From contig ML978127.1 of the NCBI GenBank assembly GCA_010015805.1, positions 682,001 through 746,000 on the forward strand: a stretch of DNA of 64,000 bases, in the 5' to 3' direction. This DNA comes from Rhizodiscina lignyota. Its lineage: Eukaryota. This document shows positions 39,652 through 59,348 of the stretch, one piece after another (positions within the stretch are counted from its first letter, which is position 1; every line of letters begins with the position of its first letter). The position numbers and the translations under genes were made by a program. The notes under the pieces were generated by a model that saw nothing but the letters and a program-made list of their open reading frames with translations, was not told where the DNA came from and searched no databases.

Positions 39652-40314
39652 CTATTTCCTGGTCACAGGATTTGACACCAGATCCCAAAGGTCTTCTATG
39701 TGCTCCACGGTGGACTTGCACAAAAGGTCGCTGGAAACATTGAAATGTTGATGACGCTGGTCATACGGTGTCAAGAAGTCATCCTCTTCACCATCGTCAT
39801 GCGCACTGCTATCGTCACTGTCGTATTCATCTTCCGAGGACCAAAACCCATCGCTGCTACTCGACTCTGATTGGTCGTCGAGGTCCGAGTCGTCGTCGGA
39901 GACTGAATACACCGTGACGTTCGGCTCTTTCCGAAGAGACGGCGGCGGCCTTTGTTCGTCTATGCGAAGGCTCTCCTCTACGAGCACTGATGTCAAGTTA
40001 AACGAGGCCATGTCGTCCTCATGTACTTCTGAGTTCCACGAGTCTGGGTCGTCGTATTCTTCCGATTCGACTGACTCTGCGTCGTCCTCATGCGCTTCTG
40101 ACTCGACCGAGTCTGTGTCGTTCTTGTGTACCTCAGGTAAGATTGCGTTTGACTGATAGAGGTTGGACATACGCTCACAAACAGTGTCGAGTGTGTTGCA
40201 AAGGAGAACTAGTCGTCTCAGACTAGCTATTTCTCCGTTTCCTTCGAAAGCAATTTTACTCCGAGTCTTGTGAGCAAGGTCAACCTCAAACTGTGTAATG
40301 GGAAGTTCAGCCAT
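39652..40314 (-). CDS. Acidic protein with an Ecm13/YJR115W-like N-terminal motif
   Basis: LAHKTRSKI...SLRRLVLLCNTLD resembles the recalled LA.xARxKL...LRxLVxHANxLD motif; D/E/S-rich tail; TATA-like element upstream. Confidence 0.6.
   Translation of the reverse strand: MAELPITQFEVDLAHKTRSKIAFEGNGEIASLRRLVLLCNTLDTVCERMSNLYQSNAILPEVHKNDTDSVESEAHEDDAESVESEEYDDPDSWNSEVHEDDMASFNLTSVLVEESLRIDEQRPPPSLRKEPNVTVYSVSDDDSDLDDQSESSSSDGFWSSEDEYDSDDSSAHDDGEEDDFLTPYDQRHQHFNVSSDLLCKSTVEHIEDLWDLVSNPVTRK
40010..40134 (-). repeat. Degenerate ~33-36 nt coding tandem repeat, ~4 copies
   Basis: EVHKNDTDSVES / EAHEDDAESVES / EEYDDPDSWNS / EVHEDDMAS. Confidence 0.7.
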
Positions 40315-50990: not shown

Positions 50991-52859
50991 CTACAGCTTC
51001 GCTGCAGGTGTCGCGGCGCCTACATTCGTGATTTCGTTGTAGAGCAGACTGTTCTGTCGTTAGCAATACTATCCTTCTCACATAGAATTATTCTTCTCCC
51101 ACAACTCCTCCGGAGAGAGGAGCATGAGCAGAAGATGTCACTTACCTTGTCAAGAACTCTGCGTAATCTTCTCCGGTAACCTGGCTCTCGAAATACTTCG
51201 CCGCTAGCTTGAACTTGTTGCCCTTCGGCCCCTTCTTCTCTAACTCATCCGCCTGCTCCTTCAGCAATTTGAGCGAATACTCAGGCGTCATCTTCTTGCC
51301 CTCCGAAGTGCTAACGCCGTGCCTGCACCACTGCCACAGCTGACTCCTGCTGACCTCCGCCGTTGCCGCGTCCTCCATGAGATAGTTGATAGGCACGCAG
51401 CCAACGCCGCGCAGCCAGCCCTCCATATAACCGAGGCCGATGTTGAGGTTCTTCCGGATGCCGTCCTCCGTAATCTTGCCGGGAACGTTCATGTTGAGCA
51501 GGTCGTTGCCAGAGATCTTAACATCCTCGCGGCGTACGAACAATTGATTCGGCGTCGGCATGTACGTGTTGAAGATGTCGCTCGCGATCGCTGCAAGCGC
51601 TGGATGTGCGACCCAGGTACCGTCGTGGCCGGCACGGACTTCTCTGAGCTTGTCGGCGCGCACGGAGGCCATAGCAGCGTCGTTGGCGGCCGGATCGTCC
51701 TTGATGGGAATCTGTGCTGCCATGCCACCCATGGCGTGGACCTGGCGGCGATGGCAGGTTTGGATGAGGAGCTTGACGTATGCATCCATGAATGGAACGG
51801 TCATAGTGACGGCACTGCGATCCGGGAGGACGAAATCGGGGTTCTGGCGGAATCGCTTGATTACAGAGAAAATATAATCCCAGCGGCCGCAGTTAAGACC
51901 TGAGGAGTGGTCACGGAGTTCGTAAATGATCTGTTGGTTATGTCAATACCCAAAAAAAATAACAACTTTTGCAATACCAGCCAGAAATGCAATTGGTAGC
52001 AATGAGATCGAATACGAACCTCATCCATCTCAAAGGCCGCCATGATCGTCTCGATCAAGACGGTTCCCCTAATTGTGCCACGCGGCATTCCAATGTAGTC
52101 CTGTGCCAAGTTGAAAACATCGTTCCACAGCCTAGCCTCGAGATGGCTCTCCATCTTCGGCAGATAGAAGTATGGGCCCGTCCCTCGCTTGACGAGCTCC
52201 GCTGCATTGTTGAAGAAATACAGGCCAAAGTCGAACAAACTGCCGGAGATCGGCTCGCCATCAACAGTGAAGTGCTTCTCCTCCAGGTGCCAACCTCGTG
52301 CACGGCAGATAAGGGTAGGCAGAGTGCGGTCGGTGCGGAGCTTGTAGTCCTTCTCGCCCTGCTTGAAGTCGACTTGCTTGCGAATGGCATCGTAGAGGTT
52401 AAGCTGGCCGTTGACCATGTTGTCCCATGTTGGTGCATTTGAGTCTGAATTGATACCGGATCAGCGTCGTCTCATGTGCTGACTATCGAGCCATTTACCT
52501 TCAAAATCGGCCATGTATGTCCAGACGTTGGAGTTCAGCGCATTAACAACCATCTTCCTGTCGGTGGGCCCAGTAATCTCAACCCTCCTGTCCACCAATC
52601 CTGGTGCTGGCGGTGCTCCTCTCCACGCATCGTTCTCACGGATGTGCTTGGTCTCGGGGAGAAAGTCTGGCAGATTGCCTTTGTCCAGCTCAGCCTGGCG
52701 GATCATACGCCTCTGAAGCAAAGCTTTGCGAGTCGCATTGAAGGACCTATGGAGCAGCGCGAGGAACACAGTGGCTTCCTTGCTCAGGATGACGCGGGTC
52801 TGGTCATTGAGGGGACCAAGGATGTTGACATCCTTCAGAATTGCGTCTGCGTTAGCCAT
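50991..52859 (-). CDS. MLS1: Glyoxysomal malate synthase, 4 exons
   Basis: [83 protein letters not shown]; last exon ends PAAKL* (PTS1). Confidence 0.98.
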
Positions 52860-53024
52860 TGCGGTAAGTCGAAGCTTTACTTTCTATGACCAAAATAAAA
52901 CTATTACAGTTCAATGGGGGAAAAAGTATGGCGGATATGTGAGAAGCTTCGCAAAAAGCTAACGAGCGCGCATCAACGGTATATATCGGAGCGTCATGGC
53001 CAACGTCACAGCGTTTAGCGGTTA

Positions 53025-53136
53025 CCGAGGGACGAATGGGAGTAGCCATTGCGCAGCTGGGAGCCGGGGGAGGTCTAGCCAGGGCCCCGCGAATGAACAA
53101 AGTCATAATGGTCGCTGGCTGGTATCGAATCCTCGG
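53025..53136. promoter_or_regulatory. Two FarA/FarB-type CCTCGG cores upstream of malate synthase
   Basis: CCGAGG at 53025-53030 and CCTCGG at 53131-53136; another CCTCGG at 47275-47280 precedes the thioesterase. Confidence 0.5.
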
Positions 53137-53958
53137 GTGAGAGGGGCTGGATGGCGTCGGCTTTGACGCTTGTGATGATGGACGTGGGGAAGAGCTCCAA
53201 GCTCCATCAATCCACCACCACCATCGGCCCGCTCCCTGCAACGTTGCACACTTTTAGCAGACGTCGAACTTCACATTTCGCACTCCTGACGTGATGGATC
53301 TGCAAACTGTATCAGGGTAAACTGAAGACATGCCCTTCCACTGTGCAGCATCTGTGAGTTCGGCATTCACCCCGTCTGCAGTTTTGGAGAAGAGGCGAAC
53401 AGGGCAGGAGATGATTCGGGCTCTGATCAAAGTCCGAGCACACGTGTCGGGTAGCACCGGGACCGCATTCCAAGACGCTTTCGTACGAGCAACTCCATCG
53501 CGGAAAAGGTGATGGCTTATAGTGTTGCTCTAACTCCTAGGCACACGGCTACAAGTGGAGCAGCCTTACTAGTCTGCGCTGGAATAGCGTCGACACTATA
53601 ACATATCGTCGCTCCACATTCCTTCGTACGAAGCTAAAATCAAAGGATCAACCTGCCTAAATTCACATACAGTGTCCGCATGCATGTCCGCACCACGGAT
53701 AATATTTAGTCAACTCACTCTTGTTTTTGCATTTCGTCCACAGCATGCATTCTTGCGGAGCTTCCTGCCAGCTTGATGATAAGACTTCAGAGCCACGACG
53801 CTACGAAGTTGCTGCCCTCAGCTGGGTTCTGAAGCAAGTACTTTCAAACATCAACTTCTACTGTTTTAAATTGTTTTCTGCCTACTGTACAAACTATGCG
53901 ATATATGTCATTGATTACTGCACAACCATAAACCCAATTGAGCAAGCATACATTCGGC

Positions 53959-54218
53959 GTGCTCAACTCGCGAGAGCGAGGCCCCGGCGGCAAAGGCAGT
54001 TTACTTCGAAGTCGTCCAGCCCCTTCTGATCCCTCCGGGTCTGCCTTCCTATTCCTTCGCCTTTCCCTATATCTTCTAATTCCTTCTGATTCCCCAATTA
54101 GAGGACTTAGGGGAAGGCGAATGAATAGGAAGGCAGACCCGGAGGGATCAGAAGGGGCTGGACGACTTCGAAGTAAACTGCCTTTGCCGCCGGGGCCTCG
54201 CTCTCGCGAGTTGAGCAC
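53959..54218. repeat. 260-bp inverted repeat / fold-back element (96-bp perfect arms, ~123-bp total stem, 14-nt loop)
   Basis: 53959-54054 is the exact reverse complement of 54123-54218; pairing continues with few mismatches to 54081/54096. Confidence 0.98.
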
Positions 54219-56020
54219 CAACCAGAAGGCCATGCCACACCATGATCTTGTGACATGACCCTGTGGAAAGACCCAAGGCCGCTCTGTACACTTCTCGGAA
54301 ACCATAACTTAGCCGTTTGGTAACAGTAGCGGTCCGTTTCCAAGTCCAGTCGCCCAAGTCAATGAGAGTATAGTGGAAGCATCCAAGGGAGCAGCTGAGC
54401 AAGCGAGCTTGCTGCTCCCGAGTTGATTATCCTTCCACGTCTTGGGCAGAGCCATCTATCCAAACTTGAACGATTCCCCATCTTTCTTCTTTTCTAAATG
54501 TCAGATACGGTGTTAGCATGGAACTTTCAGCAGCTGCAACCGGCAAATCAACAAAAATGGTGCAATGGCCACACATACAAGCAGTCTTCTTGACATAACC
54601 ATGCTGCTGACTATGGTGCCTCTGCAGATGATCTTTTCGAGTGTAGCCTTTCGTGCAACCAGGTTCTGGGCAAGCGTAGGCAATACGATCGTTATTTCCA
54701 GAATGACAACTGCGTTCATGACGTCCTAGATCCGCTCTCAGGCCAAATGGAGGTTGCGTACAGCCTGGAACTGCACATTTGAATTCGCGGTGATGCTTCC
54801 TTTTCTTGTGGCGCCTGAATATTAGTCAGTCTTCCTCTCGGCCGCAGAAATAAGCAAAAATAGAGGTTGACTGCGTACGTGAGCTCCCACGTTTTCTCAA
54901 ACGTATCACCACACTCCGAGCAACGGTGTTTGGCTTTGCAAGTTGCTAGATCGCTCGGTGAAGTTGAGCAGGAGGTAGACGGCGGACTGAAGTGGTCTTC
55001 CGGATGTTCTGAAATTGCGGACCCAGGGTACGAGCTGAGCGGATCAAGATCGAATGGTGACTGGCTAACAGGCTTTGCGTCAAGAGAGTGCTTGGCAGAA
55101 GATTGATATAGTTCTTTTGGATAGATTACTGGATTTGGTAGATATTCGACCGCGCTTGGGTCGACATACGCTGGGACGAGACAGCTAAAGTTGGCGTCAA
55201 GATTATGGCACCAGGGTGTCTCTGAGATTTAGTATGCGCGGAGTGGGATCTCCGCGCAGATCGAGCAAATTTCAACTGATGAGAAAGATTGTCCTTGGGT
55301 TCGATACTCGAGGATTGACGAAGCTGGTTTGGCCCCAGCTCGCCTACGCCTCGGAGGCGTGGCTGGTGAGCCTGTGATCAGACGATGAAAACTTGAGGAG
55401 ATGTGTTAAAAGATATTGTCGGAGTTGCCTGTCGTGATTTGAGAGGGAGTGCACCAGGTCTTTATACAGCCTCGCGGTTCATGTTGGGGCATACAAGGCT
55501 GATCACATCAGGCAAACTTGCGTCTGCATGGTCGCTAAGATGTGCTCCAGGGAGTCGCTGCAACCCAGTCGAATGTCGAGCCGTCTCCAATAGCGGTGAG
55601 TCGTCTTAGTGATGCATTTGAGAGCCAATGAGGTGTCTCTCACCAATCACTATTTTGATTTGCCATTAAATCCCGCATATCGATCGTATGCCCCAATTTT
55701 GGGAGAGGACCATACGTTACCAGCTGGAAGTTAACTTTCTGGTTTTAGTGGAAATTTGAGTTCCTCTTCGGTCTGAACCTGTATGCCCCCAACATGTTGT
55801 TATGTCAGTGGTAGTGACATAAAGATGGTCGCGAAATCTAAAGATGTATATGTTCGAACATAAAGCTTCCGACCTTTCTGTCGTCCCAAATACTCGCCGT
55901 CCTTCATCAGACAAAATGCCATCGCTCACAATAATCGTCTGTCCTCCTAAATTTCCAAACATATCCCTCACTTCTTCGATGCATCCATACCGGCTTCCAA
56001 ACAACTGCTCCCTCGCAAAT

Positions 56021-56125
56021 ATGACCTCCCCTTCTCCGGCTGGATCAATTGCCTTTGATACTATCGCCGTCGTTCTAGCGCTGTTGACGTTGGTCGTCGC
56101 ATATCTGCAATTCCGCTATCGGTGA
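56021..56125 (+). CDS. Putative 34-aa single-pass membrane micropeptide (or first exon of a decayed gene)
   Basis: MTSPSPAGSIAFDTIAVVLALLTLVVAYLQFRYR*; pyrimidine-rich leader; the stop overlaps a possible GTGAAT donor. Confidence 0.35.
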   Translation: MTSPSPAGSIAFDTIAVVLALLTLVVAYLQFRYR

Positions 56126-57285
56126 ATGGGCTTAAGAGCGTTAGTAGCAATCTGGTAATCTCACGGTCCCTGGGACATTTGTGATTTAACTGGGTTCTAG
56201 TATGTTGAATCTCATCAATGCCAACAATGTCTCCAATGACAACTCATGGAAGTGTTTCCGAAATGAACAGGTCCGGTGAGGTACCGTATGGGATAGGGAA
56301 CTAGAAACAGGACAAATCATGGCAAAGACGGAAAGAAATACTTTATACAGAGATACTCGAATTTCAAACATGATGACCGCATTCAAATCCGAGATCCTCT
56401 ATAAAACCACTTATTGGAAATTGTATCTCCCCTGCCACGACTCGAACAGTACTACAGTGTGACGACACCGCCGCAACCGCGAAGCCCGCGTGCTGATTCG
56501 AGAGCTTAAAGATATTCGAGCTTATACGTGACGGCTGGTATACATCCATCGAACCTCCAGAGTCCTTCCAGGTTGAAATCACAAGACACCCTGCGGATAA
56601 GACGTATGATGATCATGAAATCGTCAGCTAAGGAATCGAAGGGTGGAACTGGTACGACGGAGGCAAAAGTGCTAATCGTGATGCCTTTCCTGTTATACTA
56701 GTCAACTCATATTGCATCTCTTTGACAGTGAAATTGACAAGAGATAATAGAGGAAGGCTGTGGCTGCGAGAAGCATCAGAGAGTAACGCCGCAAGGCTGA
56801 ATCGCGCTTCTGGCACGGAGTCGGCCAATGCTACCAGTCATTGCTGCGAGTTTTGGACGCGGATATCATGTGTGCAATAGGTACCAAATTGCAAAGGACA
56901 ATGGAGGGAATCAAGTCCATTGAAGCTCTTAAGCAAGCAAAGGCATCCCGATAGAATTCCAATTCATGTGAAGAGCAATGATTGAAGGAGAAGATATGTT
57001 ATTTTGGCCAATAATAGACGCACGACTCGCGAAGCCCAAGGGAGCGGAGTTAGTCAGCGTCATTGGGCCTTGGCGAACGCCTCTCGACCGAACTTCACAG
57101 CCTCAAGCACGCGGCGACTACGTATGCTCAACCGGGCAGAATTGCGACTCCAATCGCAGTAATACTCGACTTTCCGAGTCTTTATATTCTTTGTTCCGCC
57201 TGTCCAGTCACCCAACAACTTCCCATGATACCTCCTCCGAGGCTCCGCAGCCCAAATCCCACCAGCTGGACTCTCCTTCTCCGCC

Positions 57286-59348
57286 ATGCCGTCGATATTG
57301 TCTGAAGAGGACAAGCAGACTGTCAAGCGGACAGTACCGAAGGCCTCCAACAAGATTCATGCAGTTGCAGTTGCAAAGTTGTACATTGCCTATCCGAACC
57401 GGCAAAGATGGACGTACACCGGCCTGCAGGGTGCCGTAGTCCTGGCCAACGATCTCGTAGGCAATACATTCTGGATAAAGTTGGTGGATGTGTCGGTAGG
57501 TTGCGAGAAAAAGATTTCACATTGCCTATATCACTAATGCTCAGAAGCCTGCAAACCGAGGAGTCATATGGGATCAAGAAATATACGACACATGGTCTTA
57601 CAACCAAGACCGCACCTTCTTCCACACCTTCGAGCTCGAGGACTGTTTAGCGGGTTTATCATTCGCTGATGAGAAAGAGGCTCGGACATTCTTGAAGAAG
57701 ATGGGGGATCGGGAGAAGAATGCTCACAAGAATACCAAGGGCAGGCCATTTGGGGCGGCCAAGGGTATGACGAATGGATATGGCTCTGGGGATGAGAAGC
57801 AACATCACAGCCTATTCGGAAGTCTCTTTGGCAGCCACAGACATTCATCGGCTCCACAACAGCCCGCTCAGTCAATCATCCCGCCTCGAGAGATTGCTTC
57901 ATCGACCCCACCTGCATCGCGGAACTCTTTCGTCGACTCGCTGGACCCGAAACTTGTGAGGGAGTTGAAACAGCTCGGATTGTCGGAAGACCAACTCGCA
58001 GATAATAAAGACTTCATCCAGTCATATATTACTGAGAGCAAGAAGGCGGAAGAACAGCAGAAGGAGCAGCAAAGGAGGTCAAGAGCACCACCACCGCCGC
58101 CCCCACCGGCTGCTGCTCCTGTGAGTATAAGCCCACAGAATACTGGCAGTACAACTGCATCAAGGCGTGGTCCTCCGCCAGCTCCTCCACCAGCTCGAAG
58201 AACGGTGACCAAGGTCGACTCTGTGCATCGCGAGGACCCGTCCCCCCCGAGAAATGCTACACCACCCGCACCTCCCGCGCCTCGATTCAAAGCTCCACCT
58301 CCACTCGCAGATGCTGGCAAGTTGGCTCATGACGTGCCGAGACTGCCTTCGCGAGCACGTGCATCATCAAACGTCGCGAATGCAGCTCCTCCTCCACCTC
58401 CAAGGCCATCGAAAGTACCGGACGACACCCCAGCCGAACCTGGACACAAGTTCGGAGTACCACCGCCTTTCGATGGCAACCGCATCCCTTCAGGGCCACC
58501 GCCACCACCAGCCCGCGGTCCTGTACCGCCTCCTCCGCCAGCACGCGATACGCATGCGCAGGCACATGCTGTTCCTCCTGCCGCTGCGGCACCACCACCT
58601 CTCCCGCCAAAGGCGCCAGAGCAAACCAGCCCACCACCACCACCTCGTGCGCCTGTGAAAGCTCCGGGCCCAGCAGGTGCACCTCCTCCACTTCCCCCAA
58701 GTTCAGCGCGTCCGCCTCCTGGTCCACCACCTCTGCCAGCGTCGTCCTCTCCAGCACCTCCCCCTCCTCCACCATTACCTACCTCAAATGCACCGCCACC
58801 TCCGCCGTTACCATCATCGAACGCACCACCACCTCCACCCTTACCTCCATCCAACAACATACCACCACCTCCTCCGTTACCTTCCTCTGGCGCGCCTCCT
58901 CCACCTCCATTACCATCCAGTGGTGCTCCACCCCCACCGCCTCCCCCACCACCAGGCGTCGCACCATCCGGACCGCCACCTCCCGCTCTACCCTCAGGAG
59001 CAGCGGGTGGCCGCGACGATCTCCTTGCTAGTATTCGTGGAGGTGCGAGGCTTAAGAAAGTCGATGACACCCAGAAGCGAGATCGCAGTGCGGCAGCGGT
59101 TCCTGGTGGGGAGCCTTCCAGTCCGCCACCTGCGAATGCAGGAGGGGATACAGCCGCTCAACCTGGGTTGGCGGGTGCTTTGGCCCAAGCGCTGGCGACG
59201 AGGAAGAGTAAGGTCGGAGACAGTGGTAAGTTACTTTTCTCCTTCTCACAGATGAAGTTTGAATTTCTACGTTTGATCTAGTAATCACGACATTTGGAAT
59301 GATATTCTAACTTCTGCAGACGATGAATCCGACAAAGACGACTGGTAG
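57286..59348 (+). CDS. LAS17: WASP homolog, Arp2/3 activator (introns 57496-57544, 59225-59319)
   Basis: WH1 domain (AVAVAKLYIAYP...FWIKLVD...IWDQE...FFHTFE), poly-proline region, WH2 GGRDDLLASIRGGARLKKV, C helix, acidic tail DDESDKDDW*. Confidence 0.96.
58680..58995 (+). repeat. Coding tandem repeat (A/I)PPPPPLP(S/T)S(N/G), ~33-36 nt unit
   Basis: About 6-7 degenerate copies within the LAS17 proline-rich region. Confidence 0.8.

Follow-up and report, generated by a model that had tools for sequence, protein, structure and literature searches.

In yeast, the ends of resected breaks snap back at imperfect inverted microhomology and are extended by Pol delta, after which the extended ends are captured by NHEJ with 0-5 bp of microhomology (PMC11724301). 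The foldback inversions described in the available text of that study span 2 to about 150 bp, and most are shorter than 14 bp. Template switching also perfects and lengthens inverted repeats near yeast promoters, with arms of 10-48 bp in the portion of the study accessible (PMC13100816). LIRBase, as its rules are given in the partial text of PMC8728187, demands arms longer than 400 nt, so that the hairpin described here lies outside its scope.

Here, we analysed an inverted repeat of 260 nt in a filamentous ascomycete whose assembly comprises 33.4 Mb in 33 contigs. Unless a contig or locus is named, positions refer to the window, the whole 64-kb stretch of DNA that was analysed. The hairpin belongs to a known kind of DNA structure, and a selected function is probably absent. 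We give an even chance to the reading that it is a locus-specific inverted duplication, produced by DNA fold-back synthesis and carrying no selected function.

The full arms occupy positions 53959-54081 and 54096-54218 (123 positions each) and enclose a 14-nt loop (54082-54095). Two tiers can be distinguished. Counted pair by pair, the outer arms (53959-54054 and 54123-54218, 96 bp) form 96 consecutive Watson-Crick pairs, from 53959:54218 through 54054:54123, the left arm being the exact reverse complement of the right. The inner stem is 27 bp long, with a pyrimidine-rich left strand (54055-54081) and its partner at 54096-54122. It holds five differences: C/T at 54055:54122, T/T at 54070:54107, A/C at 54071:54106 and T:G at both 54064:54113 and 54074:54103. 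The coordinates and mismatch counts of an earlier note, made from the letters of the window, were all reproduced. The two short palindromes that it reported inside the arms are present, the loop positions 54082-54090 are indeed identical to the arm positions 54022-54030, and the arms are GC-rich as described (57% GC for the hairpin).

Complementarity ends abruptly at 53959:54218. Beyond this boundary, the residual similarity between the two flanks is not significant over 25-300 nt (p = 0.35-0.81), and a longer ancient inverted repeat reaching into the flanks was rejected as not significant. The internal self-similarity of arm and loop is not significant against block shuffles either (p = 0.09 and 0.19), and a tandem ancestry of arm and loop was set aside on this test. 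We also observed, post hoc, a 7-bp inverted repeat with one half on either side of the hairpin's left junction (53938-53944 and 53960-53966). At the start of the right flank, nine of 11 nt (54219-54229) match the reverse complement of the loop.

As RNA, the region would fold very stably. The fold of 53930-54250 reaches -265 kcal/mol, whereas shuffled sequences average -104 (z = -31.5), and none of 100 shuffles equals it. The hairpin has an energy of -257.7 kcal/mol on the plus strand and -252.1 kcal/mol on the minus strand. It had been argued that the T:G pairs, as G-U wobbles, point to a plus-strand transcript. This argument fails, as the A/C pair at 54071:54106 becomes a G-U wobble on the minus strand, and the count is two on plus against one on minus. 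For the same reason, the three true mismatches counted earlier hold for pairing on the plus strand, but the A/C pair among them is a wobble on the minus strand. The hairpin sequence favours neither strand as RNA.

One public sequencing run (X1), possibly the source run of the assembly, contains the region, with 97% of 329 sampled words present. Three contigs of this run were aligned to 54055-55600, a stretch that includes one perfect arm. A 17.4-kb contig (depth 146) begins inside the arm and continues into the right flank. A second contig, of 4.0 kb (depth 150), begins in the arm end and continues into letters that are the reverse complement of the left flank. The third, of 137 nt (depth 171, one differing letter), covers the loop and arm. 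The right inner stem is covered by a contig of the run, while 54055-54081 is without one. Both outer arm-flank junctions are therefore found in read-derived contigs at single-copy depth, and no contig spans the entire hairpin. An assembly or library fold-back artefact would be in line with the lack of a single read or contig across the whole structure, with the uncovered left inner stem and with a run that is perhaps the assembly's own. Against it stand the two junctions in separate contigs of similar depth, the five differences between the inner arms and the unique sequence that runs on at both sides. An artefact is thus extremely unlikely, with the caveat that the junctions may come from the assembly's own run, and we regard the hairpin as real.

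The hairpin is rare in its genome. We scanned 864 kb base by base (80 stretches of 10 kb and the 64-kb window; 2.6% of the genome) for inverted repeats with arms within 1.5 kb of each other. Each was scored as arm length minus three times the number of mismatches, with a threshold of at least 40. The hairpin is the sole repeat to reach the threshold, the next best scoring 32, and no comparable repeat occurs in the 800 kb that were not chosen for the hairpin. Genome searches at the DNA level, a loose first look with the hairpin, one arm and 4.3 kb of context as queries, returned the locus alone. In the 864 kb, the best BLASTN match to the hairpin outside the locus has E = 0.17. The terminal 22-mer, allowing up to three mismatches, matches twice in 33.4 Mb, at the hairpin's own two arms; a reversed control gave one match. 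No target-site duplication of 2-11 nt is present at offsets 0-3, as the earlier note had observed. The genome search that it had called for thus found just this locus and no shared ends. As regards RIP, the arms are still GC-rich, no 1-kb window in the 864 kb has a GC content under 41.8%, and the genome contains three C5-methyltransferase loci of unassigned class. The length threshold for RIP probably exceeds the length of these arms.

These results bear on a transposon origin. MITEs are recognised by multiple dispersed copies, shared terminal inverted repeats and a target-site duplication. The hairpin resembles MITEs and foldback transposons in being short, non-coding and bounded by terminal inverted arms. 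Its size and long arms would fit a remnant of a non-autonomous DNA transposon, in which the terminal inverted repeats make up nearly the whole element. Near the malate synthase genes of other fungi, long inverted repeats with 250-1400 nt between their arms are also found. These repeats (loci L100, L108, L136, L153, L148 and L098) are transposon-like and unrelated in sequence to the hairpin. In contrast to such elements, the hairpin is single-copy, with the caveat that an assembly may collapse or miss repeats. It has neither a target-site duplication nor shared ends, its terminal 22-mer recurs nowhere else at up to three mismatches, its GC content is that of a GC-rich sequence, and the 14-nt spacer leaves hardly any internal sequence. 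We consider a transposon remnant very unlikely, and the MITE/foldback family proposed earlier is not supported, given the single copy and a terminal 22-mer limited to its own arms at up to three mismatches.

The distribution of differences between the arms points to an origin in stages. The inner stem makes up just 27 of 123 positions and holds all five (p = 3.7e-4 if evenly spread), and at the inner-stem rate the finding of none in the outer 96 has p = 3e-9. This clustering rejects a single duplication with even decay. The inner stem is itself beyond an ordinary chance hairpin: with loops of 3-40 nt, the 863.6 kb searched contain no other stem of at least 21 of 27 pairs and none of at least 24 of 31. 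The clustering and the unusual inner stem together imply a history of at least two stages, in which an old imperfect stem would have formed first and the outer arms would later have been copied or homogenised as DNA. The suggestion that the arms are recent or homogenised is thus supported by the clustering. Selection on RNA pairing alone would permit G-U pairs and scattered mismatches; the 96 pairs, free of both, therefore appear to reflect recent DNA copying rather than selection on an RNA structure.

The left flank offers an indication of how the second stage may have occurred. With positions 53959-54061 set aside, the flank prolongs the inner stem without a shift of register, giving 25 pairs over 31 positions. 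Its last 11 nt (53948-53958) are complementary to 54116-54126 at nine positions and would form the outer end of an older stem of 31 bp. Among all switch points and in both polarities, the best is 54062 with the right arm ancestral. Under the null, such a flank match has p = 0.0145 for switch points 54050-54064 and p = 0.0695 for all points up to 54064 in both polarities. The match was found post hoc, and the polarity and break point that it indicates are suggestive only. At 54055, the flank agrees with the right arm and the left arm differs, so that one later change in the new copy is enough. From the mismatch pattern and the flank match, we infer that the 103 nt at 53959-54061 are a fold-back (templated inverted) insertion. 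The left outer arm would then be the newly copied one, and the right outer arm the probable ancestral template.

The mismatch clustering is accounted for equally well if the whole 123-bp repeat is old. In this scenario, recurrent conversion between the arms, or recurrent template switching, would preserve the identity of the outer 96 bp while sparing the loop-proximal part, again without a selected function. Template switching is known to homogenise arms, as described in the available text of PMC13100816. An old repeat of this kind does not account for the in-register match of the left flank, however, and no diverged extension is seen past the outer boundary. We consider it improbable.

Under the fold-back reading, an older imperfect stem of about 27-31 bp with a 14-nt loop would have come first. 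A 3' end that was broken or stalled, probably on the minus strand near 54062, would have snapped back onto this stem and copied about 103 nt of the adjoining right-hand sequence. The extended end would then have been rejoined bluntly to the left flank, without microhomology. The outcome would be perfect outer arms around a diverged core, with one later substitution at 54055. Should a transcript of the C2H2 gene described below, or another, read through the locus, the hairpin would probably be processed by Dicer into siRNAs with no known match but the locus itself, and these would be a by-product.

The imperfect inner seed, short spacer and perfect outer arms that characterise fold-back products are all found here. 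The hairpin shares with S. cerevisiae foldback insertions at breaks, as far as the accessible text describes them (PMC11724301), an imperfect inverted seed with a short spacer and a perfect, presumably newly copied outer arm. Little or no microhomology at the junction and a size within the reported range would be further likenesses. A junction with 0-5 nt of microhomology next to an adjacent template is consistent with the locus, but hinges on the inferred break point. The systems differ in that the repeat is here a fixed natural allele of a filamentous ascomycete, its origin being read from sequence alone, and in that the seed measures 20-31 bp here against 10 bp in the yeast account (PMC11724301). 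Yeast template-switch repeats, in the part of PMC13100816 available, are likewise non-coding, lie near the upstream region of a gene and have perfect arms that grew from a shorter repeat, as the arms here probably did. Their arms, for events overlapping regulatory sites, are 10-48 bp long, in contrast to 96-123 bp here.

Several points weigh against the fold-back model. It is a reconstruction from one sequence, and the primer would consist of just two matched bases beyond a mismatch. An extra substitution is required at 54055, and the 9/11 match of the right-flank start to the loop reverse complement is left unexplained. With 103 nt, the insertion would be at the long end of the yeast inversions, which are mostly below 14 bp in the text available (PMC11724301). 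The model also does not account for the existence of the old stem, which is about as large as a pre-miRNA-like hairpin and may have been maintained by selection.

To the left of the hairpin lies the malate synthase gene MLS1 (51142-52859, minus strand, 3' end unmapped), with its ATG at 52859, 1.1 kb away. To the right, at 3.1 kb, is a LAS17/WASP homologue with WH1 and WH2 domains (57286-59281, plus strand), whose short last exon lies beyond this range. The earlier note had placed the hairpin in a divergent MLS1-LAS17 intergenic region. The flanking genes are as it named them, but the arrangement is not simply divergent, with a minus-strand C2H2 zinc-finger gene (54427-55225) between them. The 3' end of this gene faces the hairpin. 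A probable intron spans 54878-54815, and the stop codon lies at 54427-54429 or, should a second intron be spliced out, near 54493. The distance from the stop to the right arm is thus 210-275 nt, so that the hairpin could sit in or just past the C2H2 3' UTR, where minus-strand read-through would be possible.

The assignment of the C2H2 gene comes from a Pfam zf-C2H2 match (E = 0.001) of 19.9 bits, under the curated cut-off of 25.2, and from Atlas neighbours at 0.90-0.94, mainly zf-C2H2 clusters. It has 16 paralogous matches in the genome at E <= 0.01, and its splice signals are plausible. A start codon was looked for and not found, and the gene may therefore be a pseudogene. A search among longer proteins gave no orthologue of its exon at E <= 0.001, which is weak evidence. 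A short hydrophobic ORF (56021-56125, plus strand) lies head-to-head with the C2H2 gene, and a similar ORF in the same arrangement occurs at one of nine paralogous C2H2 loci (L186:872-1246, minus strand). The two have a local score of 53-57, and BLASTP gave no alignment; we take this as a weak hint of a duplicated two-gene module. Elsewhere in the window, three degenerate tandem copies of 33-36 nt (40012-40121) are probably a coding repeat.

The position 1.1 kb upstream of the MLS1 ATG would also suit a cis-acting DNA element with an influence on MLS1 expression, in the form of a cruciform or of duplicated factor sites. In yeast, the expansion of an inverted repeat raised GRE2 expression about four-fold, but the accessible text of the same study gives no expression increase at ERT1 (PMC13100816). 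Nothing similar is found near malate synthase at 80 other fungal loci, all of them distant and many short. A cis-acting element is, in our view, highly improbable.

Comparison with other genomes and databases gave no indication of a source for the arms. The N-terminus of the malate synthase has at most 92% identity among its best 120 matches, with Candelina among the named ones, so that no close relative is represented there. Across 80 metagenome malate-synthase loci (524 kb), the best DNA identity is 83.7%, over a short piece. BLASTN of 52861-57300 gave no matches to these loci, all distant and many short, and TBLASTN of LAS17 and C2H2 pieces gave none either and revealed no synteny. The terminal 22-mer has no exact match in metagenome and viral contigs. 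A coding origin of the arms was rejected on genome searches with three of their reading frames, which match the locus itself and, weakly, two other places (E = 0.7 and 2.9); one further arm frame was covered by the Pfam scan. Pfam gave nothing over the cut-off for open frames across the hairpin, and phmmer against 1.84 billion proteins returned three matches, all to highly repetitive proteins. One arm frame has a proline-rich motif that presumably recalls a P450 N-terminus. A vector origin was discarded for want of a plasmid match, and a phage origin on five phage records with matches of 22-26 nt (E = 0.2-0.8). A literature search with partial coverage found no description of this locus, and titles and abstract openings gave no described hairpin at a fungal malate synthase.

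The main rival to the fold-back reading is a functional hairpin-RNA locus. Such a locus would give a precursor of milRNAs or endogenous siRNAs, expressed independently or within the C2H2 3' UTR, that is diced, loaded into Argonaute and maintained by selection, irrespective of how its DNA arose. The locus has a stable stem-loop outside coding sequence, with a very stable fold on both strands, and the minus-strand C2H2 gene ends a short distance upstream. The organism also appears equipped for this pathway. Its genome contains domain matches to the Dicer dimerisation domain and, at four loci (C9:1363886, C2:757922, C2:877296 and C1:1864764), to the Piwi domain of Argonaute. Stops inside some of the Piwi matches are probably introns. 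Given these domains, any transcript across the hairpin would probably be diced. Palindromic loci account for 74% of siRNA-locus reads in Naumovozyma castellii, according to the available text of PMC7528652, and A. fumigatus dices inverted-repeat transgenes (PMC12871901). The N. castellii loci are likewise long-hairpin inverted repeats in a fungus with Dicer and Argonaute; they are transcribed and diced (PMC7528652), whereas the present hairpin is known from its DNA.

Other observations speak against such a role. The 96 bp contain neither a G-U pair nor a mismatch, and a strand bias is absent. No target or parent gene was found in the loose genome search or in the base-by-base scan, which covered 2.6% of the genome. 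At up to four mismatches, 21-mers of the hairpin occur 16 times in the 864 kb against 18, 13 and 15 in shuffles, and are thus not in excess. All 14 matches to Rfam fall short of the gathering score, among them 13 to miRNA models on the hairpin; they reflect the stem and not kinship. Ten paralogous C2H2 matches, at nine places, have no such hairpin within about 1.5 kb. Fungal milRNA precursors, as treated in the accessible part of a survey (PMC9757828), are also non-coding hairpins without an Rfam match at the gathering score. The well-supported ones are short, however, in contrast to the 260 nt and near-perfect pairing found here. The hairpin would fit only tier 3 of that survey, which in the text available neither excludes nor supports it (PMC9757828). 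Taken as a whole, we consider a selected hairpin-RNA locus unlikely, and its involvement in RNA production or silencing is a candidate role only.

As a candidate for a hairpin RNA, a second inverted repeat may be superior to the 260-nt hairpin. It lies at L072:5420-5860 (C4:325420-325860), with arms of about 100 bp that are roughly 80% alike and a spacer of about 200 nt, and it is older than the 260-nt hairpin. By eye, most of the changes between its arms are synonymous in a single frame, pointing to a coding fragment duplicated in inverted orientation. On the plus strand, a TATA-like box, a CT-rich leader, an ATG and an intron-like donor precede the repeat, whose spacer has a paralogue at C8:949420-949581 (E = 4e-6). 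An imperfect inverted repeat with 57-bp arms at L184:1318-1840 (near C3:19500-20000), close to a contig end, encloses a stretch with weak similarity (E = 0.34) to the L072 frame. The two repeats possibly belong to the same small family.

It is conceivable that the two main readings of the 260-nt hairpin meet. An old stem-loop of pre-miRNA size near the C2H2 3' end would, by one fold-back step, have become a 123-bp Dicer substrate, and siRNAs made from read-through transcripts might silence the C2H2 transcription-factor gene in cis or mark chromatin around the MLS1 promoter. We regard this as speculative and doubtful. If it were true, a hairpin-RNA gene would be seen at its birth, and there would be a direct connection between break-repair foldback synthesis and the way in which natural long hairpin RNAs arise in filamentous fungi.

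Under the fold-back reading, the hairpin would be a clear-cut case, found in nature, of a process already known, the fold-back growth of an inverted repeat, and an unusually long one. It is rare in this genome, with nothing comparable in 800 kb of unselected sequence. The hairpin would matter more if it is expressed: a young hairpin-siRNA locus is a possibility, and an RNA role is a possibility only.
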